Assembly (NCBI GenBank): GCA_902791865.1
Contig: CADAXK010000013.1
Location: forward strand, 9,812-73,811
Length of the DNA: 64,000 nt
Reading direction: 5' to 3'
Source of the DNA: an uncultured Bacteroidia bacterium
Lineage (GTDB): Bacteria; Bacteroidota; Bacteroidia; Bacteroidales; ML635J-15
In this document: positions 15,098-59,107 of the stretch, in pieces
Numbering within the stretch: the stretch's first letter is position 1
Layout of the letters: the number at the start of each line of letters is the position of its first letter
Position numbers and translations under genes: made by a program
Notes under the pieces: model-generated
The model's input: the letters and a program-made list of their open reading frames with translations, nothing else
What the model was told of the DNA's origin: nothing
The model's database searches: none

Positions 15098-15135
15098 GTT
15101 CTGTAGAATCGTGCCATGGCGCGATTCTACAGAAC
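15098..15135. repeat. REP-like palindrome, 38 nt (GTTCTGTAGAATCGTGCCATGGCGCGATTCTACAGAAC)
   Basis: Near-perfect palindrome. Contains the stop codon and last three codons of 15127..17007. Confidence 0.85.
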
Positions 15136-27524: not shown

Positions 27525-29633
27525 ATGAGAAAGATATTTCTACTTGCGACATTCGCTACCTTATTAATAAATATAGCATTCGCACAGCAAGTCAGCATCA
27601 CCAATGGAGAAAACATTGCCATAAACATAATTGCAGAACGCTTTCCTCTGCTTGGACAAAATCCCGACAACTACAAGATTGCAAACTCATATACCGAAAC
27701 ATTCAACGGTGAAGAGGTTTTCCATGTCTACAACCTTGAACCAACGGGATTTGTAATAGTTTCGGCTGAAAGGTCGGTAGAACCTCTGCTGGCATTTTCG
27801 TACGAAAGCACCTGCTCCCAAACCGGCAGACACCCAAGCGTAGAAGCCGTGCTGAAATCGTACTCGGAACAAATTGCATACGCAATAAAGAACGGACAAA
27901 TTGCATCTTCGCACACAAACGCCGAATGGGAACACTATTCGGCAACCGATTTCAGTGCGCGCAACATGAGAACTGTCGCACCACTTCTTATAACAAAGTG
28001 GGATCAGGGCAAATATTTCAACAGTGCCTGCCCCGAAGATGCACATGGCAAAGACGGTCATGTGGTAGTCGGTTGCGTAGCCACAGCTATTGCCCAGATT
28101 TTCAATTACTTCAGATACCCGACACAAGGTACTGGCAGTTACGGATACGACCATCCCAACTATGGTCATCTGGAAGTAAACTTCGCAGAACAGCACTACG
28201 ACTACGACTATATGCCAGTAAAGCCCACCGACTACAACGAAAACCTTGCACGACTTCTGTACAACATCGGCGTGTCGGTTGACATGAATTATGGTCCAAA
28301 TGGCAGCGGCATGACCAACCACAAGGGAGCCTACACAATGCGCAACTACTTTGGATACAGCGATGATGCCCGCTACATCTTCAAGGACAGCCTGCCAACA
28401 GTAATCCCCGACAACATCGAAAACGACACCGTAATCCCCGATAGCATCTGGAACGGCATACTCGTCAACCACCTCGACCGCAAAATTCCACTCTATTATG
28501 CAGGCTGGGGCGACTATGTATACGAGAGCGGACATGCCTTCGTGTTTGATGGATACAACGATTCAACGCATTACCACATTAACTGGGGCTGGGGTGGTTC
28601 GTATGATGGATTTTTTACCATTAGTAGCCTTTCGCCAGGTGGTTCTAATTTCCGACTTGCACACGAAGTAATTATCAATGCCACACCCAAAAACGAAACC
28701 CATACATGCGAAGGACTTAAGGAAATGAATTTCTACGAAGGCACAATTGAGGACGGTAGCGGTCCCCTTAGAGACTATGCCCCAGAAAGCAACTGCTCGT
28801 GGCTAATAACACAGCATGATTCGGTAAACGGCTATACACTTACAATTTCCAAGTTCGACATTGATGCAACCGACAACATAATCGTTTACGCAGGCGACAG
28901 CGAAGATGCCCCTGTTGCATTAAGCCTATTCGGAGACGACACACCAGAAACCAGCTATACGATAAATTCAACATCAATGCTCATTAAATTTGTTTCCGAT
29001 GAAACAGCATCAGGCGATGGCTGGCTTATTTCGTACGAACCTATAAAGCCTACATATTGCGAATTCTCCACTCCACTAACCGAACTGCGTGACACCATAA
29101 CAGATGGCAGCGGCCGCTGGAATTATCAAAACAATAGTGATTGCAGATGGAGATTGACTCCTGAAACGACTTCAAAATTTAGATTTGAATTTTTGGAACT
29201 CGACACCGAATACGAAAAGGATTTTGTGAAGATTTTGCGCAACGGAAGAAAATATGCAGAATTTTCCGGCGACACACTTCCAGAGCCAATAAGCTTCGAT
29301 GGAGAAACAGCCACAATTGTATTTACTAGCAACGGATCAAGGACTGCCGGTGGATTCAAGATTGTATATTCTATTGGCGAAGCAAGTGTCGAAAGTATTG
29401 ACAACAATAATGTATCGGTTTATCCAAATCCTGCAAGGGAGAATATAATAGTGGAAGGCGAGAATATTGAAGAAATACAAATCTGCAACCTACTCGGCGG
29501 TGTTGTTTATGAAACGCAACAATGCAATGACAATAATGTAATTTCCACGGATGGAATGGGTGCCGGCAACTATTTTGTAAGGGTTACAATGACGGATGGA
29601 AAGGTGGTGATGAAGAAAATAATCGTTCTGTAG
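27525..29633 (+). CDS. C10-family (streptopain-like) cysteine peptidase with CUB-like modules and a T9SS type-A sorting domain
   Basis: ITKWDQGKYFNSACP...VVGCVATAIAQIFNYF (catalytic Cys) and GHAFVFDGY...HINWGWGG (His). The C-terminal tail is VYPNPARENIIV...KKIIVL. Confidence 0.85.
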   Translation: MRKIFLLATFATLLINIAFAQQVSITNGENIAINIIAERFPLLGQNPDNYKIANSYTETFNGEEVFHVYNLEPTGFVIVSAERSVEPLLAFSYESTCSQTGRHPSVEAVLKSYSEQIAYAIKNGQIASSHTNAEWEHYSATDFSARNMRTVAPLLITKWDQGKYFNSACPEDAHGKDGHVVVGCVATAIAQIFNYFRYPTQGTGSYGYDHPNYGHLEVNFAEQHYDYDYMPVKPTDYNENLARLLYNIGVSVDMNYGPNGSGMTNHKGAYTMRNYFGYSDDARYIFKDSLPTVIPDNIENDTVIPDSIWNGILVNHLDRKIPLYYAGWGDYVYESGHAFVFDGYNDSTHYHINWGWGGSYDGFFTISSLSPGGSNFRLAHEVIINATPKNETHTCEGLKEMNFYEGTIEDGSGPLRDYAPESNCSWLITQHDSVNGYTLTISKFDIDATDNIIVYAGDSEDAPVALSLFGDDTPETSYTINSTSMLIKFVSDETASGDGWLISYEPIKPTYCEFSTPLTELRDTITDGSGRWNYQNNSDCRWRLTPETTSKFRFEFLELDTEYEKDFVKILRNGRKYAEFSGDTLPEPISFDGETATIVFTSNGSRTAGGFKIVYSIGEASVESIDNNNVSVYPNPARENIIVEGENIEEIQICNLLGGVVYETQQCNDNNVISTDGMGAGNYFVRVTMTDGKVVMKKIIVL

Positions 29634-42212: not shown

Positions 42213-45200
42213 ATGAATATAAAAAAGTTAACCGTACTAGTTGTGGCATTGATCTTGATGCAATTTGTATCGCTAGCACAACTTTCAGTTTCGATAACAG
42301 GGAATTTCAGCGGATGTCCACCTTTGATACAGCAGTTCGGATGCAATATTTCGGGAGCAAGTGGCGATGTAACTTATTCGTGGTCATCGGGTAACGGCGA
42401 TGTATCGCAACTGCCTACCCCAACGTTCTCGTACATCAATCCCGGACGATACACGCTTTCGGTTACTATTACAAGCGGCGGACAAACTGCAAGCGACAGT
42501 CATGAAGTTGTTGTTTTCCATGTACCTACCGCACAATTCTCCGACACACCAATTAGAGGCTGCATACCATACGACTTTGTCGCCGCTAACCAATCGACAC
42601 AAGGCGACGCCGAAATAACAAATTACCTATGGTACTTTGGCGATGGACAATCATCAAACCAAGCATCACCCACACATACCTACCAAAGTTCAGGCGTATA
42701 TACCGTTTCACTCGAAGTAACCGATGCTAACGGATGCGTTGACAACAAGACTGCAACACAGATGATTACTCTGTCGAAAGCCCCAGAGGTATCGTTTACT
42801 GCACGCGATGCTCAATGGTGCGTAGCTCCCCACGATGTTTCGTTCACCTCCAACATTTCAACTACTGGCGGACTTGGCGGACAATGCACAACAAACTGGA
42901 ATTTCGGTGATGGAAGCTCAAGCACACAAGAAAACCCATCGCACACCTACACAAGAACTGGCGAGTTCGATGTAACGCTGACTGTATCCGACGAATACGG
43001 ATGCAGCACCACTGTAGAAGAACCTCGCCTGGTAATTATTGGCATGATGTCGCCCGAATGTACCGTTCCGACACAAATGTGCGTAAATCAATCAGCCGTA
43101 TTTACAAGCAATGTAGATAACGAAAGCATCTGGAATTTCGGTGACGGCACCGGAGATCAACAAGGTCCAACAGCAACCCACAGCTATTCGCAACCAGGAG
43201 CATATCCCGTTACATTTACGGTAGACCCCAACGGACCATGCCGACAAGTGAGGACTTTCACAGTACAAGTTGAACGCGTAGAAGCATCATTCCGCACCGT
43301 ACCTACCGATTTGTTCTCGTGCACATATCCTTTCGAAGTGCAGTTCATCAGCACTTCTGTCGGAAACGATCTGTCATACTTCTACAATTTTGGCGATCAG
43401 CGTCCTGGAAACGAGGCAAATATGTCGCATTCGTATATGCAAAACGGAGAATTTACCCCCACCCTCACAGTTACTTCGCCAACGGGATGCTCGTCGCAAT
43501 TTACTGGACCGACTATCGTTGTTCATGAGCCACAAGTATCGATCAGCGCCTCTGAAGACGGCGGTTGCTGGCCTCTTGATGTCGAGCTAACCAATGGAGG
43601 TTCCGACAATAACATCATAACCGACTACTATTGGGAATATGGCGACGGCACATCGGCGCACACAACAACACCTTCAACCGAACACACTTACAATTACGGA
43701 ACATTTACGCCAACTCTTACCGTTACCGACCAGAACGGATGTACCGCCACAAGAGAAGGTCCAGAAATATCGACAGGATACCAGATATTGCCAGAAGATT
43801 TCGGCGCAATGGACTCTCTGCACAATTATATTCCAAAAGCCAACATTTGTGCATCAGACACCATTTATCTTTACAATTCAATGTACGAAGACCACGACAC
43901 CCTTGACTATACATTCATAATAAATATGAACGACAGCCCATTCGAGGAACAGAGCAGCGAAACATACCACCAATACTCTTTTGAACAAGATACAGGCTGG
44001 GCATATATCGGATTGAGGGTCGACTACAACCAGTGCAAATCGGATACACTATGGTGGGACAGCATATATGTGGCACCTCCTATCGTAAAGATAAGGTCAA
44101 TATCCGACTGCCAGTCGCCTCGCGACTATACATATAAGATAAGCCAAAATATCGGTGCAGATTATTGGGACTGGACTATTACCGACCTTGAAACAGAAAC
44201 AGTAATACAGCAGGTTCTACATTCCACCGTTGACTCAATAAATATAACATACGATTCATACGGCAGGTACGAATGCAAGATTGTAGCATACAACGACACT
44301 TACGGAGAATGCGAATATGAAAAAACAATTACAAGCGAAATAGTAGAACAAGACATGACTTGGTCGGTTACGCACGATACCATCTGCACCGGACAAAGAA
44401 TTTCCATCACTATAAGCGAGGCAGCAGCATACAACGAAGTCGCATATAACTGGACAGGCGAAAGCGTTTCATACGATACCCTAAACTGGATTCCTGCATC
44501 ACCAGGAATGCAATCGGATATGTATCAATATGCAGATAGCGGGAATTACAATCTGACAATTTATGCCCGCAAAGCGGATAATTGCGTATCAATCTTTACA
44601 AAAAACATATATGTTGTTGGCGCCAGAGCACACATGGTGCCAGAAAGTCTTGCAACTGGTTGCGCACCGGCATCATTCGAATTTGAAGCAATACCCGAAA
44701 CAAATGACCCATTGCAGTATGTAGCATGGGACTTCGGTGACGGCTCGCCAATTGATACCACTTACACTCCAAATGTACCAGTAGAACATACATATACAAA
44801 TGTAGGCACATATAGAATCATTATGCGTATATCGACAGAACATGGCTGTAAATTCTCGAAGATATATTCAAACAGAATACGAGTAATAGATGCTTTAAAT
44901 GCAGATGTTACATTCGGCGCCAGCAATATATGCCTAGGTGAAGGCAGCTCCTTCACAGCCGCCGATAACGACAACTCAATATGGCACGAATGGGACTTCG
45001 GCGATGGAACGCAACTATCTGGAAACTATAGCGTTGTCAACCACCAGTACGAGCAAGCTGGCAACTATACAATTACGCATATAGTTTCGGGAGGCGAAAA
45101 TGGCAATTTTGCATGCAACGATACCGCAATGTATGAAAACGCCATGACGATAGAAAGCATCTCAGCTGACTTTGAATTGGACAGCACATTTTTCTCGTGC

Positions 45201-46676
45201 TATCCAGTCAGTCCTAACATACAAAGCAACGTGCAGTATGCTCCCGATGACATAAATGTCTCATACACATGGGATATGGGAAACAACGAGCAGGGCATAC
45301 ATGTGCCTAACCCGCAATACCTGTACACCACACCCGGCACATACACCATTACTTTGGAAGCAGAAACGCCAGCAGGATGCCGTTCAACGGCAACCCACAC
45401 AATAGAAATAACAGGTCCTGTTGCCGATATTCACCTGAGCGATACTATTGTATGCGCCGGCGGAATAATAAGCATGTCGATGGCCAATGCAAGCAATGTG
45501 GATAGTTTGGTATGGGTTGTTGGCGGCGGATACAACTATTTCACGCCGGAAGTTACGCACCAATACGACTTTGTGCCCGAATCCGGTTACTTCCCCGTAA
45601 CATTGTCAATACATCAGGGACACTGCAAGATTGACCTTACCGAACGAATATTTGTATATAGGTTGCGTGGCGACTTCACGCTTGCAGATACAGACGGTAA
45701 CATCATCGAATACAATGAAGGCGTATGTTCGCCTTTGGTTGGAACATTGGCACACGACTATCCAGATGACTGCACACTGCAATGGCTCGTAAACGGAAAC
45801 CCGCATACTGGAGAAAATGTAAACTGGCAGAACAACTCCGTACAGACAGACTCACTGTTCACTGTCAAGATTCTTGCCACCGATACGCTGGGTTGTATCG
45901 ACAGCATATCGCACCGCTACTATGTATACCACCTGCCGACGCTTAGAGTAAGCAACGACACAACCATCTGCTACGGCGATACCGTAAAAATGTCGGCAAT
46001 GGATGCTTACGCATACTACTGGGAAAATCCAATCGACGACAGCCTTCCAAATCAAATTGCTACACCAGAAGAATCAATTGTATATCATGTTAATGCATAC
46101 ACCGAAAACAGATGTACAGTATCGGATTCCATTTCGGTTATTGTAATTCCAACATACGAGGCATCGGTATCTGATGATTATTTCAGGATAAACATGGGCG
46201 ACACTGCTGTAGCAATCATTACAACCGACAACAGCGACATTTCTTGCCAAATTTTACCTGAAGAATCCGTAACGATGCGCAACTGCGACTCGATAGTATT
46301 TTATCCAGAGGAGAATGCCGACTATGTGCTTATCCTAAAGGATACAAGCATCTGTCCAGACCGCAAGTTCGACATACACATTGACGTGGAAAAGATATTT
46401 ACACTTGACGTTCCAGGCGCATTCACTCCGCTAAGCGAAGGTGACGGCAACAATATAGTTTATGCCCGTGGACTTGGCATAAAGCATTTGCTACAATTCC
46501 GCATTTTCAACCGATGGGGCGAAGAAGTCTTCTTTACCGACGACCTGCATACTGGCTGGGACGGAACCGTAAACGGAAAGGTGCAGAATAGCGACACCTA
46601 TTCGTATTATGTCGAGGCAGAAATGTTTGACGGAAGCATACAAAGCAAGAAAGGAAACATTATGCTGATAAGGTAG
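42213..46676 (+). CDS. PKD-repeat surface protein with a T9SS type-B (gliding-motility-associated) C-terminal domain, paralog 1
   Basis: Signal peptide. Many W(Y/N)FGDG PKD cores. The tail reads LDVPGAFTPLSEGDGNN...FRIFNRWGEEVFF...GWDG...YYVEAEMFDG...IMLIR. Confidence 0.9.
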   Translation: MNIKKLTVLVVALILMQFVSLAQLSVSITGNFSGCPPLIQQFGCNISGASGDVTYSWSSGNGDVSQLPTPTFSYINPGRYTLSVTITSGGQTASDSHEVVVFHVPTAQFSDTPIRGCIPYDFVAANQSTQGDAEITNYLWYFGDGQSSNQASPTHTYQSSGVYTVSLEVTDANGCVDNKTATQMITLSKAPEVSFTARDAQWCVAPHDVSFTSNISTTGGLGGQCTTNWNFGDGSSSTQENPSHTYTRTGEFDVTLTVSDEYGCSTTVEEPRLVIIGMMSPECTVPTQMCVNQSAVFTSNVDNESIWNFGDGTGDQQGPTATHSYSQPGAYPVTFTVDPNGPCRQVRTFTVQVERVEASFRTVPTDLFSCTYPFEVQFISTSVGNDLSYFYNFGDQRPGNEANMSHSYMQNGEFTPTLTVTSPTGCSSQFTGPTIVVHEPQVSISASEDGGCWPLDVELTNGGSDNNIITDYYWEYGDGTSAHTTTPSTEHTYNYGTFTPTLTVTDQNGCTATREGPEISTGYQILPEDFGAMDSLHNYIPKANICASDTIYLYNSMYEDHDTLDYTFIINMNDSPFEEQSSETYHQYSFEQDTGWAYIGLRVDYNQCKSDTLWWDSIYVAPPIVKIRSISDCQSPRDYTYKISQNIGADYWDWTITDLETETVIQQVLHSTVDSINITYDSYGRYECKIVAYNDTYGECEYEKTITSEIVEQDMTWSVTHDTICTGQRISITISEAAAYNEVAYNWTGESVSYDTLNWIPASPGMQSDMYQYADSGNYNLTIYARKADNCVSIFTKNIYVVGARAHMVPESLATGCAPASFEFEAIPETNDPLQYVAWDFGDGSPIDTTYTPNVPVEHTYTNVGTYRIIMRISTEHGCKFSKIYSNRIRVIDALNADVTFGASNICLGEGSSFTAADNDNSIWHEWDFGDGTQLSGNYSVVNHQYEQAGNYTITHIVSGGENGNFACNDTAMYENAMTIESISADFELDSTFFSCYPVSPNIQSNVQYAPDDINVSYTWDMGNNEQGIHVPNPQYLYTTPGTYTITLEAETPAGCRSTATHTIEITGPVADIHLSDTIVCAGGIISMSMANASNVDSLVWVVGGGYNYFTPEVTHQYDFVPESGYFPVTLSIHQGHCKIDLTERIFVYRLRGDFTLADTDGNIIEYNEGVCSPLVGTLAHDYPDDCTLQWLVNGNPHTGENVNWQNNSVQTDSLFTVKILATDTLGCIDSISHRYYVYHLPTLRVSNDTTICYGDTVKMSAMDAYAYYWENPIDDSLPNQIATPEESIVYHVNAYTENRCTVSDSISVIVIPTYEASVSDDYFRINMGDTAVAIITTDNSDISCQILPEESVTMRNCDSIVFYPEENADYVLILKDTSICPDRKFDIHIDVEKIFTLDVPGAFTPLSEGDGNNIVYARGLGIKHLLQFRIFNRWGEEVFFTDDLHTGWDGTVNGKVQNSDTYSYYVEAEMFDGSIQSKKGNIMLIR

Positions 46677-46813: not shown

Positions 46814-49800
46814 ATGAGAGAATACATTTACAAGATACTAAAATACATAATGTTGGCGCTTATTGCCATTCTATTGCAGATGGTGACGAAAGCCCAGTTG
46901 TCGGTTTCGATAACAGGTCGTTTCGAGGGTTGTGCGCCACAAATCCTCTCTTTCGGATGCAATGTAAACGGAGCAACAGGCGAAGTTTCGTATTCATGGA
47001 CATCGGGCAACGGAGACGTTTCGGTGCTTGCCGAACCTACATTTTCATATCTCACACCAGGACGATACACCATTTCTGTCACAGCATCAAGTGGCGGACA
47101 AACAGCCACCGACAGCCACGAAATAGTTATTTTCAACGGACCTACGGCATCATTCAACGACAGCACCATTGTAGGATGCGTATCAAGAGGATATTTGTTC
47201 CAAAGCAGCTCTACTGCTGGAGATGCCGAAATTACAAACTGGCTCTGGTATTTTGGTGACGGTGTTTCGGCACAAGGTCGGTACAGGGCACACACATACA
47301 CATCGCCAGGCGTTTACACGGTTTCGCTCGAGGTTACCGATGCCAACGGATGCCGTGACGAATATCATTCGCAAATGCTAACGCTCTCCAAACGTCCAGA
47401 AGTTTCAATAACGGCCAACAATGCACAATGGTGCGTGGCTCCGCACGAGGTAAATTTTTCATCGGAAATATCAACCGATGTCGGACTTGGCGGACCCTAC
47501 ACGGCAACTTGGGATTTTGGAGACGGCACAGAAAGCAACGAGGACAATCCATCGCACACCTACGAAAACACTGGTAGCTACAATGTTACACTCATAGTGG
47601 TTGATTCGTACGGTTGCACGTCGGTAGTACAAGAAAATAACATGGTTGTGATAGGAACACTGACACCTACCTGCACAGTGCCAACAGAAATGTGCCTCAA
47701 TACACAGTCCACCTTCCGTAGCAATATCGACGACGAATTAGCTTGCTATTGGGATTTTGGCGATGGAACTGCCCTGCAATGGGGTGCAGAAGCTAGCCAT
47801 ACGTATTCGCAAGTGGGAAACTATTCGGTGTCGTTCACTGCCGATCCCAACGGCCCATGCCGACAGACACAGGTTTTCAATGTCAATGTGGTGGACGTCC
47901 ACGCATCTTTCCGCACCGAACCCGAGGACTTGTTTTCATGTACATACCCTTTCAATGTCAGGTTTATTAGCACTTCCACAGGTGAAAATCTTACATATAC
48001 CTACAATTTCGATGATAATTACATTGGCTTTGATGAGATTTCCAACCACTCGTATTCGCAGAACGGCAGATTTACGCCAACACTTACGGTCACATCGCCA
48101 GGCGGTTGCATATCGAGATATACAGGACCAGAAATTGTTGTCAACCAACCCGATGCGGAACTTCATTCCACCACGGCTGGCGGATGCATACCAACAACCG
48201 TAGGTTTTTACAACGATCCAGAATATACAAGCAATTCGGCTGTCGTGGATTTCTTTTGGGATTTTGGAGATGGCACATCAGCCCACACAACCACATCAAC
48301 TGTAGAACATGTATATTCCGAGTTCGGCACCTATTATCCAACGCTCACAATTACCGACACTTCTGGATGCACAGCCACAAGCCAACTGCACGAACGACCA
48401 CTAGCAAGCATTGTTACAGGAACTCAGGTTTCACCAGAACAATTTGGAGTAACTGATGCCTCGTTCAATTTTATTCCAGGCGATACGATTTGTCCATCAG
48501 ACACGGCTTATCTTTACAACTCTATGTATGGTAATTCTACAGAGTACAACTATTTCTTTGTGATTAGCGCAGGAAGCATGTCATGGGATGTAAATTCTGA
48601 TGATGAATATACTTCTTATTTATTCAAGGTTGATACAGGATGGAACAATGTAGGATTCACAATAGAGTACCGCAACTGCAAGTCGCCAGTAGAACCATGG
48701 GACAGCGTTTATGTGAACCCACCCATCGTACATCTAGCTTCGCATTCCGACTGCGCTGCACCTTTTGCATACTCGTTCAATCTGACCGAAAATCTTGGCG
48801 CAGAATACTGGGACTGGCTAATATGGAATAGTGAGAACAACTATATCTATATGAATCTCATTCATTCTACTGAGGATTCCATTTCTGTTGTATTTCCTGG
48901 CTACGGCAACTATCACTGCAAACTTACCGCCCACAAAGAAGGATCGGATTGCGAATTCGTGCGGGAAGTCGTCTGCGACATAAAACCACCTACTTTTAAC
49001 TGGGAAATCTCAACCGACACTCTTTGCCTCGGAAACAGGCTTACCGCCGTGGTGCTTAACGCACCGGCCTTTGCCGAAGTCGCTTTCGACTGGGAAGGCA
49101 GAGGGATACCAACAGACCAGCTCGAGTGGATTCAAATAAACGGTATTACTGATTCGCGACACACATACGAGCAAGGCGGCAATTACGAGGTTGTGGCATA
49201 CGCACGTCAACACGATGGATGTATTTCGGTATTTACCAAACAGTTGTATGTAGTTGACCCTCATTCGACTATATCACCAACAAATCTTGTCGTTGGTTGC
49301 AATCCTGCAACATTCGAGTTCCATAACATCACCAACACCGACGATCCCATTTATTCGGCAACATGGAATTTTGGCGACGGCTCGGGAAGCGCGTCTGGCG
49401 AAACCGTCACACATACCTTTGCTGAAGCTGGCATTTACGATATTTCGTTGAGCATTATAACATGGCATGGCTGTCAGTATTCAGCTACCTTCAACGAAAG
49501 GGTGAAAGTCCTTAATTTTCCATACGCTTCCGTTGATTACACGCGAGAGGTTTGCCTCGGTACTGTACAAACTTTTGTGTCCAGCGAGTCGGATAATTCC
49601 ATCTGGCACGAATGGGACTTTGGCGACGGCTCAACAATTTCGGGAACAGGGAGTACGGTCACCCACTTGTACGGACAATCTGGAAACTACACTCTTAGAC
49701 ATATAGTTTCGGTGCGAGGCGAAAATGGCGCTGTATGTAGCGATACGGTTTCGTATGGAAGGGATTTATTTATTGAAAATATCGTGTCGGCAGACTTTAC

Positions 49801-51289
49801 CATCGACAGTTCTGCATACAACTGCTATCCTGTAAGCCCCACAATACATTCAATAGTGGTTGTAGAACCAGAAAACATCTATCTAAATTACAACTGGGAC
49901 ATGGGCAACGGAGATGCTGTACACGTGGCAAATCCGCAGTACCTATATACCGCTCCTGGTAACTATACAATTGGACTTGAAGTTACAACACGCGGAGGTT
50001 GCAACGCATCAACCTCGCACAATGTGACGATTACCGGTCCCCAAGCAAACATTTCGTTGAGCGACACATTGGTTTGTGCTGGTGGCGAAGTGCATTTCTC
50101 TATGACAGATGCCGTTGATGTTGAAAGCTTTATGTGGGTTGTAGGCGGTGGATACAACTATTACACACCCGAAGTCACCCATCAGTACGGCTACGTTCCC
50201 GAATCGGGATATTTCCCCGTAACTCTTTCCATACGAAACGGCAACTGCATGATTGACTTGACCGAACAAGTTTATGTATATAGGATTAATAACGACTTTA
50301 GCCTTCGGGATTTTAAGGGCAACGAAATACTTGAAGGCTCCTGTTCTCCATTGGAAGGAAATCTGTCGTATTTGGGAACTGATGGCGTGGAACAGCGCTG
50401 GTATGTGAATGGAGTGGAACTGACAGAAAATTCGGTATCGTGGACAAATTCTTCTACGCTGATGGATTCGCTGAATGTGGTTTCCCTTGCAATTACCGAT
50501 TCACTTGGCTGCATCGACAGTATTTCGCATGAATACTTGGTCTACAGGAATCCAGAGGCACATACCACTGGCGACACCTTGATATGCAAAGGAGGTCAGA
50601 CACACATTTCTGCATTTGGCGGAAACTCCTACTACTGGCTTTCTCCTATAGACGACAGCACACAAAATCAAAATATTTCTCCAAACGAGGCAACCATCTA
50701 CTATGTTTTTGCGTTTAGTGAGAAAGGATGTTCAAAATTGGATTCGGTCATGGTTGATGTGTTTCAAGATTTTGATGCAGGAGTTTATGAGCAGTCGCTG
50801 TCCATAAATATCGGTGATACTGCCTTTGCGCTGGTATTTTCCGACATGGAACCGCTCAACTGCTACATTTCGCCAGCAGAATACGCTTTTGCAGGAAATT
50901 GCGACACGTTGTTGCTTTATCCGCTTGAAAATACCGATTTCACAATCATCCTGAAAGATACGCTCGGATGCTACGAAAAGACTATCGACATTTATGTCGA
51001 TGTTGACATTAAGTACACACTCGATGTGCCTGGTGCGTTCACACCATTGAGCGAGGACGAAAACAGCGTAGTATATGTGCGAGGCCTTGGCATAAAGGAG
51101 TTGCGCCAGTTCCGCATTTTCAACCGCTGGGGCGAAGAGGTTTTCTTCACCGACGACCTGCATACTGGCTGGGACGGAACAATCGGCGGAAAGGTGCAAA
51201 ATCAGGACACATATTCGTATTATGTCGAGGCAGAAATGTTTGATGGAAGTGTTAAGACAAAAAAGGGGAATGTGGTGTTGATTAAATAA
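46814..51289 (+). CDS. PKD-repeat surface protein with a T9SS type-B C-terminal domain, paralog 2
   Basis: Collinear with paralog 1 and carrying the same tail. The start could be 46850. Confidence 0.9.
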   Translation: MREYIYKILKYIMLALIAILLQMVTKAQLSVSITGRFEGCAPQILSFGCNVNGATGEVSYSWTSGNGDVSVLAEPTFSYLTPGRYTISVTASSGGQTATDSHEIVIFNGPTASFNDSTIVGCVSRGYLFQSSSTAGDAEITNWLWYFGDGVSAQGRYRAHTYTSPGVYTVSLEVTDANGCRDEYHSQMLTLSKRPEVSITANNAQWCVAPHEVNFSSEISTDVGLGGPYTATWDFGDGTESNEDNPSHTYENTGSYNVTLIVVDSYGCTSVVQENNMVVIGTLTPTCTVPTEMCLNTQSTFRSNIDDELACYWDFGDGTALQWGAEASHTYSQVGNYSVSFTADPNGPCRQTQVFNVNVVDVHASFRTEPEDLFSCTYPFNVRFISTSTGENLTYTYNFDDNYIGFDEISNHSYSQNGRFTPTLTVTSPGGCISRYTGPEIVVNQPDAELHSTTAGGCIPTTVGFYNDPEYTSNSAVVDFFWDFGDGTSAHTTTSTVEHVYSEFGTYYPTLTITDTSGCTATSQLHERPLASIVTGTQVSPEQFGVTDASFNFIPGDTICPSDTAYLYNSMYGNSTEYNYFFVISAGSMSWDVNSDDEYTSYLFKVDTGWNNVGFTIEYRNCKSPVEPWDSVYVNPPIVHLASHSDCAAPFAYSFNLTENLGAEYWDWLIWNSENNYIYMNLIHSTEDSISVVFPGYGNYHCKLTAHKEGSDCEFVREVVCDIKPPTFNWEISTDTLCLGNRLTAVVLNAPAFAEVAFDWEGRGIPTDQLEWIQINGITDSRHTYEQGGNYEVVAYARQHDGCISVFTKQLYVVDPHSTISPTNLVVGCNPATFEFHNITNTDDPIYSATWNFGDGSGSASGETVTHTFAEAGIYDISLSIITWHGCQYSATFNERVKVLNFPYASVDYTREVCLGTVQTFVSSESDNSIWHEWDFGDGSTISGTGSTVTHLYGQSGNYTLRHIVSVRGENGAVCSDTVSYGRDLFIENIVSADFTIDSSAYNCYPVSPTIHSIVVVEPENIYLNYNWDMGNGDAVHVANPQYLYTAPGNYTIGLEVTTRGGCNASTSHNVTITGPQANISLSDTLVCAGGEVHFSMTDAVDVESFMWVVGGGYNYYTPEVTHQYGYVPESGYFPVTLSIRNGNCMIDLTEQVYVYRINNDFSLRDFKGNEILEGSCSPLEGNLSYLGTDGVEQRWYVNGVELTENSVSWTNSSTLMDSLNVVSLAITDSLGCIDSISHEYLVYRNPEAHTTGDTLICKGGQTHISAFGGNSYYWLSPIDDSTQNQNISPNEATIYYVFAFSEKGCSKLDSVMVDVFQDFDAGVYEQSLSINIGDTAFALVFSDMEPLNCYISPAEYAFAGNCDTLLLYPLENTDFTIILKDTLGCYEKTIDIYVDVDIKYTLDVPGAFTPLSEDENSVVYVRGLGIKELRQFRIFNRWGEEVFFTDDLHTGWDGTIGGKVQNQDTYSYYVEAEMFDGSVKTKKGNVVLIK

Positions 51290-51295
51290 TTGTAG

Positions 51296-51315
51296 AGACG
51301 TTGCGTGCAACGTCT
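51296..51315. repeat. REP-like hairpin variant (AGACGTTGCgtGCAACGTCT, preceded by TTGTAG)
   Basis: 9-bp arms. Lies immediately 3' of paralog 2. Confidence 0.6.
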
Positions 51316-51488
51316 GGCAGAAATGTTGCAAACAACGACAAAAATTGTAGAAATGTTGAAATAAAAGTAGAAACGAAAGAATAGGAAAATGTATGTTAAC
51401 AAAACGATTTGTAATGTTTATGATGTTTTTTTTCTACATAAAATTTATTGATTATCGTTTGTAACGAATTAACCTAAAAATTTGTAAT

Positions 51489-52721
51489 ATGAAAGCGAAT
51501 ATTAAATTATCAGTAATCCTTCTCGGAATCGCGTTTGCCTTTTCGTTCTCATCGTGCGAACGCATTAAATTTGAACCTGAAGAAAGCCCAGTAGGTAGCT
51601 CAAGAAACATCCTGCAGGAATACGAAACCGATGGTGGCGATTTTGTGTTTTTGAAATCGTTGTTAGGTAGACCAAATCAGGAAGCAATTGATTTTGTCAC
51701 TCAGCACGGCTATGTTGAAGACGAAGGACAATCTAATTCCAGTAGAAAAGTGTATTATGATGCCGAAACTGACACCATATCAAAACGTTTGACATTGTAC
51801 TTTGAACGTGATTATTACCAATATATGCAAAATGCAGCCATGAGGGTGGAAAGTGATGAGATAGATAAGTTAATGTCTGTTTTTAGAACGTGGCTTGTTG
51901 AGATACAACATTCCGAAGCATATCATCACATAGTCAGGGCAAGTTATTCTGCGCGTATTGATAATAGTTATCAACATTTTGATTCTATGGAACAACTTGT
52001 TGATGCGTTGAATAATGTGTCGCCCGAGTCGGAAGGATACGTTTCATTTGCAGCATACGATGATATGGCATACAATTATGATTTGTCTTTATGGCTGGAT
52101 GATAATAGACCCGTCATATTTATGCAGATTATGAACGAGCGTATAAACAATCCGCTTCCCGAAGTGCCAACCGTAAATCTTACCGAGGAGTATTTGGAGA
52201 AGGACATACTAATTGCCAAAGTTGACTATATGACTTTTGAATACGGTGGATTCTACTCGATGAATGTTACAAACAAGCAGAACGAAGGAAACGAGATTCC
52301 TTTCCTTGCTGACTATATGTCTCCTGGTGATTTTGGCTACATAAAATTATACTATCGCGACCAATCGAATTTATTAATGGACGGTTCAATAATTTGGGCT
52401 GGCTGTGGTGAATTGAATTTTCCTGAAACTTTTGTCAAGGGTAATTCGTCGAACACATATGTTCCTGAATATACAATGAAACGCGGTCTGTCATTCCCGA
52501 GCGACAGAATTTCGTACATAGATGCCGATGGAAATTATGCACAGGATGTTGACGAATCGGATAATGATTTGGGCTATATATGGCAGACACTTTCGGCACA
52601 AGATGAGTTTATGTCGTATTATGAGCAGACATCGAAAAAGGTCGCTGTATATCTGTATACACCAAGCGTAGGTGTGGGCAACCCATACGATGCTTATTAT
52701 ATGGTATTTGTGGAGAGGTAA
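51489..52721 (+). CDS. Lipoprotein of unknown function (family L, copy 1)
   Basis: Lipobox FSSC. Homologous to 57905..59107. No family recognised. Confidence 0.7.
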   Translation: MKANIKLSVILLGIAFAFSFSSCERIKFEPEESPVGSSRNILQEYETDGGDFVFLKSLLGRPNQEAIDFVTQHGYVEDEGQSNSSRKVYYDAETDTISKRLTLYFERDYYQYMQNAAMRVESDEIDKLMSVFRTWLVEIQHSEAYHHIVRASYSARIDNSYQHFDSMEQLVDALNNVSPESEGYVSFAAYDDMAYNYDLSLWLDDNRPVIFMQIMNERINNPLPEVPTVNLTEEYLEKDILIAKVDYMTFEYGGFYSMNVTNKQNEGNEIPFLADYMSPGDFGYIKLYYRDQSNLLMDGSIIWAGCGELNFPETFVKGNSSNTYVPEYTMKRGLSFPSDRISYIDADGNYAQDVDESDNDLGYIWQTLSAQDEFMSYYEQTSKKVAVYLYTPSVGVGNPYDAYYMVFVER

Positions 52722-52731
52722 AAATTATAAT

Positions 52732-52824
52732 ATGAAAGTGAACATTAAATTATCAGTAATCCTTCTCGGAATCGCGTTTGCCTTTTCATTGTTATTGATT
52801 TATAATTATATGTGTATGGGATAA
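52732..52824 (+). pseudogene. Truncated duplicate of the 5' end of the family-L lipoprotein gene (signal peptide only)
   Basis: 52744..52787 is an exact 44-nt copy of 51501..51544. The frame diverges after codon 19 and stops after 30 codons. Confidence 0.6.
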
Positions 52825-52859
52825 TTCATTTCCTCGCAAACAAACCTATATCTCAAATT

Positions 52860-53414
52860 ATGCCTGTCGAAAAATTCCAAAACAAATATCGCATTGGGAC
52901 AAAACGCGCATCGTGGCACGATTACAACGATGGCGAATATTTCATTACGATATGTACAAAGGACAGAAAACATTATTTCGGGGAAATCGTTGACGGGGAA
53001 ATGCAATTGTCAGCGGTGGGGAAATACACGGATGAATGTGTACAAAAAATTTCGGAACACAACCCATACGCGCAAATTCCCGAATATGTTATTATGCCCG
53101 ACCATATTCATTTGATTGTAATAATTTCCGGTGACGATTGTAGTAGGATCGCACCATGGTGCGATTCTACAGAAAACAAAACCATGCAAAAAATGGCCAA
53201 CGACAAGGGTCGTTTATCAATTGCAATGGGCGGTTTCAAACAATCCGTCACACGATTTGCCCGTCAAAACAACATTCCATTCCAATGGCAATCCCGTTTC
53301 TACGACCACATCATCCGCGACCAAAACGAAATGAACCAGATTGCAGAATACATCGAAAACAATGTTGCGCAATGGGAATCCGACAATTCTAATCAAAGAA
53401 CCATAATTATTTGA
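52860..53414 (+). CDS. RAYT-like Y1/HUH transposase-family protein (IS200-like fold, single gene, no IS ends seen)
   Basis: KFQNKYRIGTKRASWHDY..YFITICT, the HUH motif MPDHIHLIV, WQSRFYDHIIR, and a candidate catalytic Tyr in IAEYIENN. The start is moved to MPVEKF. Confidence 0.75.
   Translation: MPVEKFQNKYRIGTKRASWHDYNDGEYFITICTKDRKHYFGEIVDGEMQLSAVGKYTDECVQKISEHNPYAQIPEYVIMPDHIHLIVIISGDDCSRIAPWCDSTENKTMQKMANDKGRLSIAMGGFKQSVTRFARQNNIPFQWQSRFYDHIIRDQNEMNQIAEYIENNVAQWESDNSNQRTIII
53143..53170. repeat. REP-like palindrome embedded in the RAYT-like coding sequence (GTAGGATCGCACCATGGTGCGATTCTAC)
   Basis: Encodes SRIAPWCDST between the HUH and Tyr motifs. Arm pairing is kept by paired substitutions relative to the intergenic copies. 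Confidence 0.8.
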
Positions 53415-53432
53415 CGCAAAAGAATTAAAATT

Positions 53433-56400
53433 ATGTTTCGGAAAGTCTGCATATTGACAATATTGTTACTGCTTTCGGCATTCGCCGCAAAGGCGCAGCT
53501 TTCCGTAACCATTATAGGCGATTCGTTCAGCGGATGCTCGCCACAAAACCTTACTTTCGGGTGCAATGTCACGGGAGCAGGTCCCAATGTTGCCTACTCG
53601 TGGTCGTCGGGCAACGGCGATGTTTCGCAACTTGCAACACCAACATTCTCCTACCTCGAAGGCGGAACATATACCATATCGGTAACCATCACCAGCAGCG
53701 GACACACTGCCACCGCCAGTCGCGAAGTCGTGATTTTCCAATCGCCTGAGGCGCGCTTCAACGAAACACCAGTCTCTGGCTGTACACCCTTCGACTATTC
53801 GCTCAGCGACATGTCAATTCAGGGCGACGCACCAATTACAAGCTGGCTGTGGTATTGGGGCGACGGGCAGACATCAACGGGACAAAATGTTTCGCACACA
53901 TACCTTAATTCCGGACTTTTGACGGTTTCGCTACGCGTTACCGATGGTAACGGCTGCATAGGCGAGCATTATGCGCAGTCTGTAAATGTATCGTCGCCTC
54001 CATCTCTGTCGGTTACCGCAGAAATAGACCAGTGGTGTGAACCACCTTTGCAGGTGCCTTTCAGAACAGATGTCACAACTGCTCCAAATGTTTCGACAGC
54101 ATATACTCTCACATGGGATTTTGGCGATGGACAGACCGGCACTGGCGACAACCTGACACATACTTACAATTCTCACGGCCATTTCGACGTTAGCGTGACT
54201 GCAACCGACAGCTACGGCTGCTACACAACGCAGGTTTATCCCGACATGATTTCAATCGCAGCATTAGTGCCACGTTTCGATGCACCTTCGCTTGCGTGCA
54301 GAAAGGTTTCCACAGCATTCCGTAGCCTTATGTCGCGGTCAACTAACTGCTCATGGAATTTTGGTGACGGCACTCCTGTTTCATACGACTACATTGCATA
54401 TCATGCTTATATGAGCGAAGGCACTTACATAGGAACTTTTACTGCCGACCCGGGTGGTCCCTGCGAACGGTCGGAAACATTTACGGTAACTGTGCAATAT
54501 GTAGAGGCTTCGTTTGTGGTTGACGAGACATTCTCGTGCGACTATCCATTCACGGCACATTTTACAAACACTTCAGCAGGCGATGACATTTCGTACCGGT
54601 ACGATTTTGGAAATGGAGTTCTAAGTTCTGACGAAAATCCAGATGTAACATACCATCGAAATGGCGTTTACGAAACATCTATGACTGCCTATACTAGCGC
54701 TGGATGTTTCGACGAATTCGATGGGCCGACTATAATCGTAAATCATCCTGAAGCTTATCTGGAATCAAATTCGTGTGGCGACTGCATTCCGAAAAACATT
54801 CAGTTTGATCATCATGTTGTATATACAGAAAATAGCGAAATCGTTGACTACTTCTGGGACTTTGGCGACGGAACAACACTTCATACCACCTACAGACCAG
54901 TAAACCATACTTATACCGTACCTGGAGCCTACATTCCCACTCTTACGATAACCGACCGCAACGGCTGCACCGACACTCGCAGATTGCACGAATTTGACTC
55001 TAACAGATGCGACACTATAGAAGTAGGCATACAGATTCCTCCAGAGGATTTCTGGCCGACCGACACAAACCACATCCGTATAAACGGAGATACAGTATGC
55101 CCACAGGATTTATATCTTTTATACAACTCAATGTATGAAAGTTCCGACAGCATCGACTTCACAATTCTGGTAGATGGAGCACACGGACCAGCCAACAACA
55201 TGTATAACGGATTTATGTTTGATGTTCATACAGGCTGGAACAATGTCGGCATAATGACAGAATATCTGAATTGTGAATCTGATTCTTACTATCAGGACAG
55301 AGTTTTTGTTTTGCCTCCAATTTTGCATATCTCCTATCAAACCCCGCCATGTACAACCCCATTCGACTACACATTCTATATTTTCGACAATCAAGGAGCA
55401 CAATACTGGGACTGGTCCATTACCGGCGGAGCATACAGCAGTGGCGATGCCCAAGTGTACTACGAACCGCATTCCACAGCATCAACCATTCATGTCACTC
55501 TCCCTGGATATGGCATGTACGAATGCAATATAATTGGATATAATGATAATTCAGGATGTACATTTACAGATCATTTTATTTTTGAAATACCTATGAGGGA
55601 TTTTATCTGGCACATGGATCCCGATACTGTCTGCATGGGGAAACACTCATCGGTTGAAGTCGACCGTGGCGGAGACGAATGGATTGCCTACAACTGGGGA
55701 ATTAACGATGTGCCCGTAGAAGACCTCGAATGGTTTGAATTTTCATCTAACATATCGCACCCGCATAGGTTCGATGAACCAGGCGACTACACAGTAACCG
55801 TATATCTAAAAGGAGACGACGATTGCATATCTATTTATACCAAACCGATATATGTTGTCGACCCATCTTCGACCATAATGCCTCCATCACAGAATGTGTG
55901 CGCACCAACTACGGTTGAATTCGAATGCGTACTTACAAATACCGACGACCCGATTAGAGATGTGCAGTGGAATTTTGGCAACAACGAAACCGCTTATGGT
56001 AATCCAATTACACGCGAATACAATGATACTGGCTACTATTCGATACATTACATGGTAACCACAAGACATGGCTGCACCGACCAACAATCGTTTGATGACT
56101 ATTTGCACGCAATATCAAACCCGGAACTTTCGGTTGAATTTGACGACAGCATCTGCAATACCGACTTGGTTATATTTACATCGAATGTTGAAAATCCAGA
56201 TTTTAGCTACACATGGGACTTCGGCGACGGCGAGATATGGGACAACAGCGGACCAGTGGTTACTCATCGCTATTCGGCTCCTGGCAGGTATTCTGTTTCG
56301 CTTAATATAAGTGGTGGTGTCGGCTGTACCGATGCAGTTGATTACCAGAATGGCGTATATGTAGAAAGTCTTAACACAAGCCTTTCGCCAGAATACCAAA

Positions 56401-57881
56401 ATTTCAATTGCTACCCTGCAGAACCAGTTTTTGCCGTTTCGGCAACAGCTTTGCCCGATGGCACAGAGCCGTCGTTCCACTGGACCATGGGAAACGGCGA
56501 CAACCTGTATGTCGAAAATCCCGAATACCTTTACAATGTTCCAGGTTACTACACAGTTTCATTTGAAGTAACAACTCCTGCAGGTTGTCGCGTGGTGAAA
56601 AATGCAAATGTAGCAATAAGCGGACCTATAGCCGAAATATACATCAGCGATACTGCCATCTGTGCTGGCGATGATGTAACTTTCAGAATGCTGAACGCAC
56701 AGAATGTGCAGTCGTACCAATGGGTTGTTGGTGGCGGATACAACTACACCACGCCAACGGTTACGCATACTTACGACTATGTTCCGCAGTCGGGATATTT
56801 CCCTGTGGTTCTTAGCCTTACGAGTGGCGAATGTTCGGTTGACATAACCGAAATGATATATGTTTACGAGGTCGATGCTCGTTTCGGTCTGTTTGCCGAC
56901 AGCGTAGAAATAACATCTGGCTTGTGCGCACCGCTGTCTGCCACATTGATAAACCAGTCATCCGAAGATGCTCAGCTGAGATGGTACAAGAATGGTTGTA
57001 TGCTTAGCGAAACTAATGAGGAAGTCCCTGTTTACTGGACAAATACATCATACAACGATTCGACATTTATTGTTTCGCTTGCCGTAGCCAACGAGCACAA
57101 CTGCTACGACAGCGTATCGCACGAATATGAGCTTTTCCCAAGCCCACATCCACTGACAAGCAACGACACCATATTATGCTTGGGAGACGAAACCGACATT
57201 ATGGTTGCAGGCGGAATTTCGTACTACTGGGATGCGCCTATCAACAACAGCAATCCGCGCCAAAGGGTTTCTCCAACCGAAAATACGACATATTATGTCG
57301 ATGTATATACAGAACATTTATGTTCGGCAACCGATTCGGTTCATATCGATGTGATTGCGCCAGTTGAAGCGGAAATTGATCCAGATTACGCATCCATAAA
57401 CATCGGTGACACCATTGTTGCAGTAATTCTTTCCGAAACCGACCTAAACTGCCGTTGGGTACCACTTGACAGTGTGATTTCAATCGGTTGCGACACCTTG
57501 TTATTCTTCCCCAATAGAAGCACCGACTATTCTGTTTGGCTCAGCGATTCGCTTGGTTGCTACGAAAACAGGTTCGACATACATATAGATGTTGAAATGA
57601 AGTTTTCGCTCGATGTGCCAGGCGCTTTCACTCCGCTCAGCGAAGGTGACGGCAACAACATTGTATATGTGCGTGGACTTGGCATCAAGCGGCTTCTGCA
57701 GTTCCGCATTTTCAACCGCTGGGGCGAGGAAGTTTTCTTCTCCGACGACCTTAACAAAGGCTGGGATGGCAGACTAAAAGGCAAGGTGCAAAACATTGAC
57801 ACATATTCCTACTATGTAGAAGCCGAAATGTACGATGGTAGCATTAGGACAAAGAAGGGTAATCTGATGCTGATAAAATGA
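53433..57881 (+). CDS. PKD-repeat surface protein with a T9SS type-B C-terminal domain, paralog 3
   Basis: Collinear with paralogs 1 and 2 and carrying the same tail (…FRIFNRWGEEVFFSDDLNKGWDG…LMLIK). Confidence 0.9.
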   Translation: MFRKVCILTILLLLSAFAAKAQLSVTIIGDSFSGCSPQNLTFGCNVTGAGPNVAYSWSSGNGDVSQLATPTFSYLEGGTYTISVTITSSGHTATASREVVIFQSPEARFNETPVSGCTPFDYSLSDMSIQGDAPITSWLWYWGDGQTSTGQNVSHTYLNSGLLTVSLRVTDGNGCIGEHYAQSVNVSSPPSLSVTAEIDQWCEPPLQVPFRTDVTTAPNVSTAYTLTWDFGDGQTGTGDNLTHTYNSHGHFDVSVTATDSYGCYTTQVYPDMISIAALVPRFDAPSLACRKVSTAFRSLMSRSTNCSWNFGDGTPVSYDYIAYHAYMSEGTYIGTFTADPGGPCERSETFTVTVQYVEASFVVDETFSCDYPFTAHFTNTSAGDDISYRYDFGNGVLSSDENPDVTYHRNGVYETSMTAYTSAGCFDEFDGPTIIVNHPEAYLESNSCGDCIPKNIQFDHHVVYTENSEIVDYFWDFGDGTTLHTTYRPVNHTYTVPGAYIPTLTITDRNGCTDTRRLHEFDSNRCDTIEVGIQIPPEDFWPTDTNHIRINGDTVCPQDLYLLYNSMYESSDSIDFTILVDGAHGPANNMYNGFMFDVHTGWNNVGIMTEYLNCESDSYYQDRVFVLPPILHISYQTPPCTTPFDYTFYIFDNQGAQYWDWSITGGAYSSGDAQVYYEPHSTASTIHVTLPGYGMYECNIIGYNDNSGCTFTDHFIFEIPMRDFIWHMDPDTVCMGKHSSVEVDRGGDEWIAYNWGINDVPVEDLEWFEFSSNISHPHRFDEPGDYTVTVYLKGDDDCISIYTKPIYVVDPSSTIMPPSQNVCAPTTVEFECVLTNTDDPIRDVQWNFGNNETAYGNPITREYNDTGYYSIHYMVTTRHGCTDQQSFDDYLHAISNPELSVEFDDSICNTDLVIFTSNVENPDFSYTWDFGDGEIWDNSGPVVTHRYSAPGRYSVSLNISGGVGCTDAVDYQNGVYVESLNTSLSPEYQNFNCYPAEPVFAVSATALPDGTEPSFHWTMGNGDNLYVENPEYLYNVPGYYTVSFEVTTPAGCRVVKNANVAISGPIAEIYISDTAICAGDDVTFRMLNAQNVQSYQWVVGGGYNYTTPTVTHTYDYVPQSGYFPVVLSLTSGECSVDITEMIYVYEVDARFGLFADSVEITSGLCAPLSATLINQSSEDAQLRWYKNGCMLSETNEEVPVYWTNTSYNDSTFIVSLAVANEHNCYDSVSHEYELFPSPHPLTSNDTILCLGDETDIMVAGGISYYWDAPINNSNPRQRVSPTENTTYYVDVYTEHLCSATDSVHIDVIAPVEAEIDPDYASINIGDTIVAVILSETDLNCRWVPLDSVISIGCDTLLFFPNRSTDYSVWLSDSLGCYENRFDIHIDVEMKFSLDVPGAFTPLSEGDGNNIVYVRGLGIKRLLQFRIFNRWGEEVFFSDDLNKGWDGRLKGKVQNIDTYSYYVEAEMYDGSIRTKKGNLMLIK

Positions 57882-57904
57882 TTATTTTTGCCAAAATTAG
57901 AAAT

Positions 57905-59107
57905 ATGAAAACGAACCATAAAATATCGGTGATGCTTGTAGGAATTGTACTCGCTTTTTTCTTTGTCGCATGTGAACGCGAAAGCATTATTCCGCCACAT
58001 AACGAGAACCCTACTCACGGACGAGAAATACAAGATGCACATCCTGCTGGTGACTTTGCTTTTTTAAGAGCTATTATCGGAATGGAAAAACAAGAAGCAA
58101 TAAATTATTTGACACAGCACGGATATGTCGAAAACGAATCGAATTCATACAATGATACAGAAGCCGACAGTATTACAAAAAGAATTGGTTTGAATTATAG
58201 AAATAATGATGTAAAAATTCCCAATGCATCGATGGCAATAGGATGTGAAGATTTTGACACTTTATCCATTATCTTCAAGAAATGGCTTCTAGAATTTAGA
58301 AATTCCGACACTTACCCGATTATGGTCAGGACTTCATACAATGTACAAATAGACAATGAAGCAGAACAGCATATATATTCACTGGCACAACTTATAGAAA
58401 TACTTCCGACATTGCACCCGACAACAAATGCATGGGTAAATTTTTACGGCAACGATAATCTGGGATACCAGTACTATTTTGACATATATTGGGAAATTGA
58501 GTATAGCACATTCATGGGCATGCAAATTATCAACGAACGCGTAAACAATCCGCTTCCTGATGTACAAATAGTAAACCTTACTGAAGACTATTTAAATAAA
58601 GACATACTCATTGCCAAAGTTGACTATATGACATTTGAATATCGTGGTTTCTATTCTATGAATGTTACAAACAAATTGAACGAAGGAACCGAGATTCCAT
58701 TTATAGCAGATTATATGTCGCCAGGCGATGACGGCTATATAAAACTGTACTATCGCGATGAAAGCAACCTGCTAATGGATGGCGATATTATTTGGATGGG
58801 ATGTGGAGAACTACATTTCCCCGAAACATTTATCAAGGGCAAATCGTCAGGAACATACACTCCGGAATTCACTCAATATCCGGGAAACGAGAAAATCTCG
58901 TTCATTAACCACTATGGAAATTACACAACAGAAATAGATTTCCCCGAGACAGACCTGCATTATGTATGGCAAACGCTTTCAGATTGCGAGGAATTTATGT
59001 CGTATTATAACCAGACATACAAGAAAGTTGCGGTATATCCATATACTCCGAGCGTTGGCGTTGGCGACCCATACGACTGGTACTATCTGGTTTTTGTGGA
59101 AAGGTAG
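57905..59107 (+). CDS. Lipoprotein of unknown function (family L, copy 2)
   Basis: Lipobox FVAC. The start is chosen by analogy with copy 1 (MKTNHKISV vs MKANIKLSV). An ATGA-overlapping ATG at 57878 is also possible. Confidence 0.7.
   Translation: MKTNHKISVMLVGIVLAFFFVACERESIIPPHNENPTHGREIQDAHPAGDFAFLRAIIGMEKQEAINYLTQHGYVENESNSYNDTEADSITKRIGLNYRNNDVKIPNASMAIGCEDFDTLSIIFKKWLLEFRNSDTYPIMVRTSYNVQIDNEAEQHIYSLAQLIEILPTLHPTTNAWVNFYGNDNLGYQYYFDIYWEIEYSTFMGMQIINERVNNPLPDVQIVNLTEDYLNKDILIAKVDYMTFEYRGFYSMNVTNKLNEGTEIPFIADYMSPGDDGYIKLYYRDESNLLMDGDIIWMGCGELHFPETFIKGKSSGTYTPEFTQYPGNEKISFINHYGNYTTEIDFPETDLHYVWQTLSDCEEFMSYYNQTYKKVAVYPYTPSVGVGDPYDWYYLVFVER

Follow-up and report, generated by a model that had tools for sequence, protein, structure and literature searches.

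Why does a gene for a RAYT-like protein (REP-associated tyrosine transposase) carry, inside its own reading frame, a member of the palindrome family that lies at gene ends elsewhere in the same genome? The locus that raises this question lies in a 64-kb stretch of DNA, hereafter the window, from an uncultured member of the Bacteroidales. We asked what the gene encodes, whether its internal palindrome belongs to the REP family of its own genome, and which of several readings best accounts for its presence there. The features discussed below are collected in Table 1.

First, the 184-residue product matches Pfam PF01797 (Y1_Tnp) with 31.1 bits (cutoff 23) over residues 26-168. Its top NCBIfam match is the RAYT model REP_Tyr_transpos (NF047646), which it reaches with 59.1 bits, under the cutoff of 80; this low score may come from the model having been built mostly on proteobacterial RAYTs. 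The NCBIfam IS200 model scored 20 bits against a cutoff of 55. The AlphaFold2 model of the protein has a pLDDT of 72.5, and the top 30 Foldseek matches in the PDB are all IS608, ISDra2, IS200 or TnpA_REP proteins (E-values from 2e-7 to 5e-5), with IS608 TnpA and the E. coli TnpA_REP (4er8) among the best at about 2e-7. A PDB search with the protein sequence also matched 4er8, weakly. In an alignment of 34 homologs the catalytic residues are invariant, including both histidines of the HIH motif and the tyrosine, and the region between the motifs is variable in length. Furthermore, W143, Q144, Y148, D149, H150 and R153 align with W94, Q95, W99, E100, H101 and R104 of 4er8, the residues by which E. 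coli TnpA_REP reads the GTAG foot (PMC6006769 Fig. S11).

Outside the palindrome, comparison of the gene with its relatives gave dN/dS values of 0.05-0.21 at dS values reaching about 1-2, which indicates that the RAYT is a working gene. It is the single Y1 gene in the 64 kb, and the synteny of its locus is conserved among relatives. No tnpB lies beside it among the window's ORFs, and a search of the 500-bp flanks found neither IS ends nor flanking inverted repeats. The gene is thus predicted, from its sequence, to encode a domesticated Y1 HUH ssDNA endonuclease of the REP-associated class. This agrees with the earlier note on this DNA, which had described a RAYT-like HUH/Tyr enzyme lacking IS ends and inverted repeats.

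The gene lies 138 bp downstream of a 410-aa gene (51489..52721) and 18 bp upstream of a 1482-aa gene (53433..57881) that encodes a PKD-domain protein, as judged from its ortholog in L081. It stands within an array (42213-59107) of three tandem paralogs of ~1485 aa (42213..46676, 46814..51289 and 53433..57881; PKD-domain proteins by their L081 orthologs), two of which are followed by ~410-aa genes (51489..52721 and 57878..59107). Just upstream of the RAYT gene, positions 52728-52787 repeat, with 97% identity, 60 nt of the start of a lipoprotein gene (51485-51544); from this truncated start it seems that a rearrangement or duplication once took place at the junction.

Table 1. Coordinates of the RAYT-like gene, of the REP copies in the window and of internal REP forms in relatives (plain numbers are window positions).
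Feature	Position or locus	Strand	Sequence or type	Remark
RAYT / TnpA_REP-like Y1 HUH gene, 184 aa	52860..53414	+		ORF, Pfam and fold
HUH motif H82-I-H84	53103..53111	+		invariant in 34 homologs
WQSRFYDHIIR helix	53286..53318	+		aligned to 4er8 GTAG-foot-binding residues
Catalytic Tyr164	53349..53351 (YIENNV, 53349-53366)	+		Y164 invariant, 34-sequence alignment
Internal in-frame "double-foot" REP palindrome, 28 nt	53143..53170	+	GTAGGATCGCACCATGGTGCGATTCTAC	GTAG...CTAC
Extragenic REP, GAATC type	15103-15130		GTAGAATCGTGCCATGGCGCGATTCTAC	overlaps stop codon of minus-strand gene 15127..17007
Extragenic REP, GAATC type	19263-19290		GTAGAATCGTGCCATGGCGCGATTCTAC on other strand	between two minus-strand genes
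Extragenic REP, GAATC type	29630-29657		GTAGAATCGTGCCATGGCGCGATTCTAC	GTAG foot gives TAG stop of gene 27525..29633
Extragenic REP, second subtype	61400-61427		GTAGCGACGTGCCATGGCGCGTCGCTAC	GCGAC/GTCGC; same copy in near-identical contig L089
Decayed REP relic	9899-9926		GTAAAAACGCGCCATGGCGCGTTTCAAA	AAACGCG/CGCGTTT type, found inside L093 gene
Sister internal form	L093		AAACGCG/CGCGTTT	
Sister internal form	L096-98		AAACGCA/TGCGTTT	
Sister internal form	L082, L084, L095, L100		AAACGTG/CGCGTTT	
Sister internal form	L094		AATCGCA/CGCGATT	one A:C mismatch
GTGG-footed REP in RAYT genes	L096:2084-2111, L097:2095-2122, L098:10406-10433			

The internal palindrome, which the earlier note had located between the HUH and Tyr motifs as the coding sequence of SRIAPWCDST, was confirmed at that position. 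Its 14+14 arms contain one G:T pair, and as single-stranded DNA of the coding strand it folds with -10 kcal/mol (z = -4.8). Nucleotides 53139-53171 translate to CSRIAPWCDST, so that the palindrome codes for most of C94-T104. In the AlphaFold2 model this peptide sits between the HUH strand (residues 82-89) and a helix (104-116), and residues 94-103, with pLDDT <50, are the sole internal low-confidence stretch. On this model, the internal REP adds about 10 residues in a loop predicted to be disordered and leaves the catalytic core untouched. An Rfam search returned tRNA only, which places the palindromes under no known RNA family.

The palindrome belongs to a family with four intact extragenic copies and one relic in the 64 kb, against 0 matches in shuffled sequence. 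The extragenic REPs are located at gene ends, and all copies in the window, like those of relatives, have the form GTAG...CTAC ("double-foot"). The four extragenic members named in the earlier note are all present and the membership of the inter-motif segment in this family stands; two of the starts given there (15098 and 29625) were 5 nt early and included flank, and the relic had been missed. None of these copies flanks the RAYT gene within 500 bp. The feet at 29630-29633 and 15127-15130 are the TAG stops of the genes 27525..29633 (+) and 15127..17007 (-), and both genes end in ...IVL*, each after ATCGTTCTGTAG.

Other repeats were noted in the window. The two same-strand genes that border the relic also enclose, 8 nt from it, a hairpin of another type (GTGGTAACGGGAAATGCCTCGTTGCCAC, 9863-9890) whose foot is GTGG...CCAC. 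In addition, intergenic DNA contains a second repeat family (3832-3894, 7986-8118, 18007-18149, 29909-30008, 36096-36175), built from inverted pairs of GAGATTCCGCAYA / TRTGCGGAATCTC in units of ~100-170 bp, with 8 matches where 2.8 were expected; its units lack a GTAG foot and bear no relation to the REPs. In two of the REP copies the foot trinucleotide occurs twice, at 53140-53146 (GTA-GTAG) and at 19263-19293 (CTAC-TAC). Such duplications were considered as a cleavage footprint and dropped, as they occur in 5/130 REP contexts, about the chance rate.

The core of the internal copy in the window is CGCACCATGGTGCG, and over the 28 positions it shares 24 with the main extragenic type. The differences themselves respect the stem. 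G11>A and C18>T compensate each other, T10>C replaces a T:G pair by C:G, and A5>G, which is found in the window allele, makes the G:T pair; the L089 allele has only the three differences at positions 10, 11 and 18. The T7:A22 pair is common to the internal and extragenic copies of the window, and A11:T18 is internal only.

How such a palindrome changes with time can be followed in the closest relatives. L089-L092, with 92-99% amino acid identity, have a perfect 30-nt palindrome, TGTAGAATCGCACCATGGTGCGATTCTACA, from which the window allele differs by a net 3-nt insertion, adding Ser95, and by the A>G change that leaves the G:T pair. Sister loci carry four other forms (Table 1). Among 8 distinct internal haplotypes, 97.9% of cells are paired, and pairs 6/23, 7/22 and 11/18 change on both sides: pairing is kept by two-sided changes. 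When a short tree was built from the first 276 nt (5′) of the gene, REP haplotypes proved to be scattered over sequences ≤6.5% apart. This scatter favours templated replacement rather than independent double mutations. The relic, whose AAACGCG type is that of the L093 gene, suggests an older REP type of the window lineage. No extragenic REP was found in the 20-kb flanks of the close relatives L081-L088, and the internal palindrome is perfect in relatives that have no extragenic copy in such flanks, across saturated synonymous divergence.

REP insertion of a destructive kind is seen as well. In close relatives (L096-98, proteins P0008, P0017 and P0022), the WQ..RF..DH..R region has given way, in frame, to a GTGG-footed REP (GTGGGGTTGTGGCGCGCCGCGACACCAC), of which L098:1396 is a similar extragenic copy. 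Having no GTAG-binding helix, these RAYTs are probably inactive, and their internal palindromes are still perfect.

We then looked at the loop across more distant homologs. A protein search yielded 976 homologs, of which 34 were aligned and the best 120 were scored for the loop peptide; DNA was taken for 80 loci in genomes and 80 in metagenomes, along with 16 contigs carrying named homologs. At the site of the palindrome, xRxxPWxxxT occurs in 102 of these best 120 homologs, most commonly as CRDVPWRVST, and most of the others have further palindrome-type peptides such as VETWRAASLQ, GRDGVHTVST and VRTMCTSSLQ. Variants of the peptide are mirror-paired (D/V, N/V, I/D or T/G at residues 3/8; V/R, A/R or A/C at residues 4/7), as fits a DNA palindrome of the form TGT AGN NNC GNN CCA TGG NNC GNN NCT ACA. 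A 30-nt REP unit is exactly ten codons, and both open frames are used (CRDVPWRVST and VETWRAASLQ), the TAG frame being never seen among the homologs.

At the DNA level, a strict internal GT[AG]G...C[TC]AC hairpin is present in 49/101 loci, usually with the conserved foot GTAGAGAC and a genome-specific upper stem. The taxa covered include Bacteroidales, Flavobacteriia, Saprospiraceae, Ignavibacteria, Nostoc and Chloroflexota. The statement in the earlier note that other Bacteroidota have palindrome-encoded peptides at this position therefore holds, and extends to Cyanobacteria, Ignavibacteria and Chloroflexota; the peptides differ between genomes. Flanking REPs exist in more distant relatives, L001, L002, L005, L171 and L173 among others. 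In four homologs (P0049, P0070, P0095 and P0120, the last at L175:10001-10675), the loop is longer upstream of its conserved internal REP owing to tandem partial repeats of a REP arm (such as CRDVPLINNCRDVPLVKIRRDVPLVKIRRDVPWRVST), giving proteins of 207-235 aa.

The comparison proposed in the earlier note is between the internal copy and the REPs of the same genome. Two approaches were set aside. Counting 13-mers common to the inter-motif DNA and the flanking DNA gave too much noise (1.2 per pair for self and 0.23 for cross comparisons, with many AT-rich chance matches), and a whole-hairpin search at ≤15% mismatch returned many cross-genome matches, because the foot GTAGAGAC is common to the family. 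The latter was replaced by a distance ranking with a permutation test. Of the 20 loci having both kinds of copy, 17 showed no more than 2 mismatches between the internal copy and an extragenic REP of the same locus; when internal copies were randomly reassigned (2000 permutations), the mean was 1.2 loci and the maximum 6. The segment between the motifs thus matches the palindrome of each genome, as had been proposed for the window, and none of the findings that the earlier note named as refuting its reading turned up. Internal and extragenic sequences are the same (GTAGAGACGTGCCATGGCGCGTCTCTAC) in the nearest clade with CRDVPWRVST, and one copy often adjoins the gene (L169, L171 and L173, all with 0 mismatches between internal and extragenic copies). 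Since internal and extragenic copies match within loci, the inter-motif segment is not a case of ordinary protein conservation. The match in the window is weaker, with 24/28 identity, and rests mainly on the lineage-specific T7:A22 pair. Indeed, the extragenic REP of the window is nearest to the L082-type internal REP, with 2 mismatches, versus 4 to its own internal copy. The own-genome match in the window is real but partial.

Starting from what is directly observed, namely the enzyme family, the position in the loop, the membership in the REP family and a pairing kept by two-sided changes, we consider it likely that the gene is a domesticated RAYT that holds a REP of its own genome in frame, as a tolerated passenger kept matched by exchange. 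The cognate elements of the enzyme would be "double-foot" REP hairpins, 28-30 nt long and built as (T)GTAG-stem-CCATGG-stem-CTAC(A), dispersed at gene ends. REPs would have entered the gene through the local (cis) action of the enzyme on neighbouring REPs, which most distant relatives also have beside the gene, and only in-frame insertions in the loop, in the two frames that avoid the TAG of GTAG, would have survived. Templated exchange with the REP pool, and not a need for the peptide, would keep the internal copy palindromic and tracking the REP type of its genome. The internal REP would most likely be a tolerated passenger and not a required part of the enzyme. Insertion of REPs into a tolerant loop had been offered as one possibility in the earlier note, and it is backed by the comparative data and by PMC6006769. 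Since no REP flanks the gene or its close relatives, a recent cis hop from a neighbouring REP is not demonstrable here.

The perfection of the internal palindrome where extragenic copies are lacking could equally mean selection on the hairpin itself. Thus, the internal REP might be functional in cis, along the lines of the coupling to mRNA or DNA that the earlier note had offered as its other possibility: the enzyme would bind the hairpin of its own gene, as ssDNA during replication or transcription or as mRNA, for autoregulation, or the hairpin would be a permanently linked master or template copy by which the specificities of enzyme and element stay matched. If true, a working hairpin that is linked to the gene and exchanged with the pool, whether as cis regulator or as master copy, would explain both the perfect pairing and the switched paired states among near-identical strains without flanking REPs. 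Several observations agree with this: the same codons are kept in the 102 of the best 120 homologs mentioned above, pairing is perfect in lineages whose 20-kb surroundings lack an extragenic copy and survives a dS of about 1-2, and the internal A11:T18 pair is absent from the local extragenic copies, with which T7:A22 is shared. However, an internal hairpin is missing from roughly half of the homologous loci, which shows that the enzyme does not need it. Moreover, position, frame and copy number vary in the loop, with tandem partial copies, which gives the appearance of repeated insertion, and the palindrome is perfect even in the probably inactivated gene of L096-L098. We therefore regard a function in cis as unlikely, and a working hairpin serving as regulator or master copy as no more probable.

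Far less probable still is that the segment is a structurally conserved piece of protein, its likeness to the palindromes being coincidental or the intergenic copies being fragments of the gene. The dipeptide PW, with C/R and S/T on its flanks, does recur in many homologs, but the amino acids vary in mirror pairs as a DNA palindrome demands, and other homologs read the same palindrome type in another frame. The segment is also predicted to be disordered, the DNA around the extragenic copies has no gene sequence in common with the RAYT gene, and 0 chance matches are expected. Finally, although the Pfam family is named "Transposase IS200 like" and the fold is common to IS608 and ISDra2 TnpA, it is hardly credible that the gene is an active IS200/IS605-type insertion sequence rather than a domesticated RAYT, given one copy in the 64 kb, conserved synteny, no subterminal IS ends, tnpB or flanking inverted repeats, the scores of the IS200 and RAYT models, and a WQ / GTAG-binding helix typical of TnpA_REP.

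Taking up again the reading of a tolerated in-frame REP, we compared the locus with known systems. Subclass 2.4 of TnpA_REP (Quentin, Siguier, Chandler, Fichant 2018, BMC Genomics 19:475, PMC6006769), which is RAYT Group 4 (Bertels et al. 2017, PMC5581495), occurs in abundance among Cyanobacteria and Bacteroidetes and has the motifs NH[IFV]H, WQ and YIxNNP. Its REPs are of the "double-foot" kind, with 5′ GT[AG]G and 3′ C[TC]AC, and its "remarkable and unique feature" is that REPs occur in frame inside tnpA_REP, which places them in a peripheral loop between HuH and Y, "in addition to" the flanking copies (PMC6006769). The window gene shares the xH[IFV]H / WQ / YIxNN pattern, a Bacteroidetes host, double-foot REPs and a variable beta3-alphaC insertion made of REP sequence, in a loop that is peripheral in the model. 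It differs by DHIH in place of NH[IFV]H, YIENNV in place of YIxNNP, and the lack of a flanking REP. In the 34-sequence alignment its closest relatives have DH[IV]H and more distant ones NH[IVL]H, all with YIENNV. The gene fits subclass 2.4, where we provisionally place it by its double-foot REPs and its in-frame internal REP, as described in PMC6006769.

With E. coli TnpA_REP (PDB 4ER8; Ton-Hoang 2012, Messing 2012, Corneloup 2021) the window protein shares the HUH/Y1 fold and a W-Q-x-R-F-aromatic-acidic-H-x-x-R helix, and both systems have GTAG-footed REPs at gene ends. In contrast, the two proteins are about 18% identical, the distance from the HUH strand to the WQ helix is ~12 residues in E. 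coli and ~39 here, and the REPs of E. coli, single-footed and with a bulge in the stem, flank the gene, none lying inside it. The TnpA proteins of the IS200/IS605 family (IS608, ISDra2) resemble the window protein in catalytic fold, chemistry and ssDNA hairpin recognition, the latter being a prediction here, but IS608 and ISDra2 are multicopy and mobile, with left and right subterminal hairpins and often a tnpB. GTAG REPs and REPs within other genes were already catalogued by Di Nocera et al. 2013 (PMC3733652). Like the in-frame REPs and the Rickettsia RPE in unrelated genes treated there, the present case shows short palindromes tolerated in ORFs as extra loop peptides. Unlike them, it concerns the gene of the enzyme that putatively mobilises the element itself, with insertions recurring at a single loop throughout the subclass.

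The arrangement was thus already published in 2018 as a class property of subclass 2.4, of which the window is a further example. Only modestly new are the two-sided stem changes, the discord between REP haplotypes and the gene tree in close strains, and an internal REP without a flanking one; neither two-sided pairing changes among close relatives nor REP haplotypes discordant with the gene tree were found stated in PMC6006769.

How REPs spread and how RAYTs and REPs are kept matched are still unsettled, and the locus adds an uncultured Bacteroidales example, whose closest relatives include ruminant-gut MAGs. Here, a REP within the gene tracks the REP type of its own genome and is palindromic by paired changes, in an enzyme under purifying selection. 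There is also a lesson for annotation: CRDVPWRVST or VETWRAASLQ in proteins labelled "transposase" or "hypothetical" are translated REPs. Because the copy in the gene is single-locus, orthologous and alignable between strains, it is a convenient natural reporter of REP turnover, and it offers a clean target for asking whether RAYTs act on their own gene.
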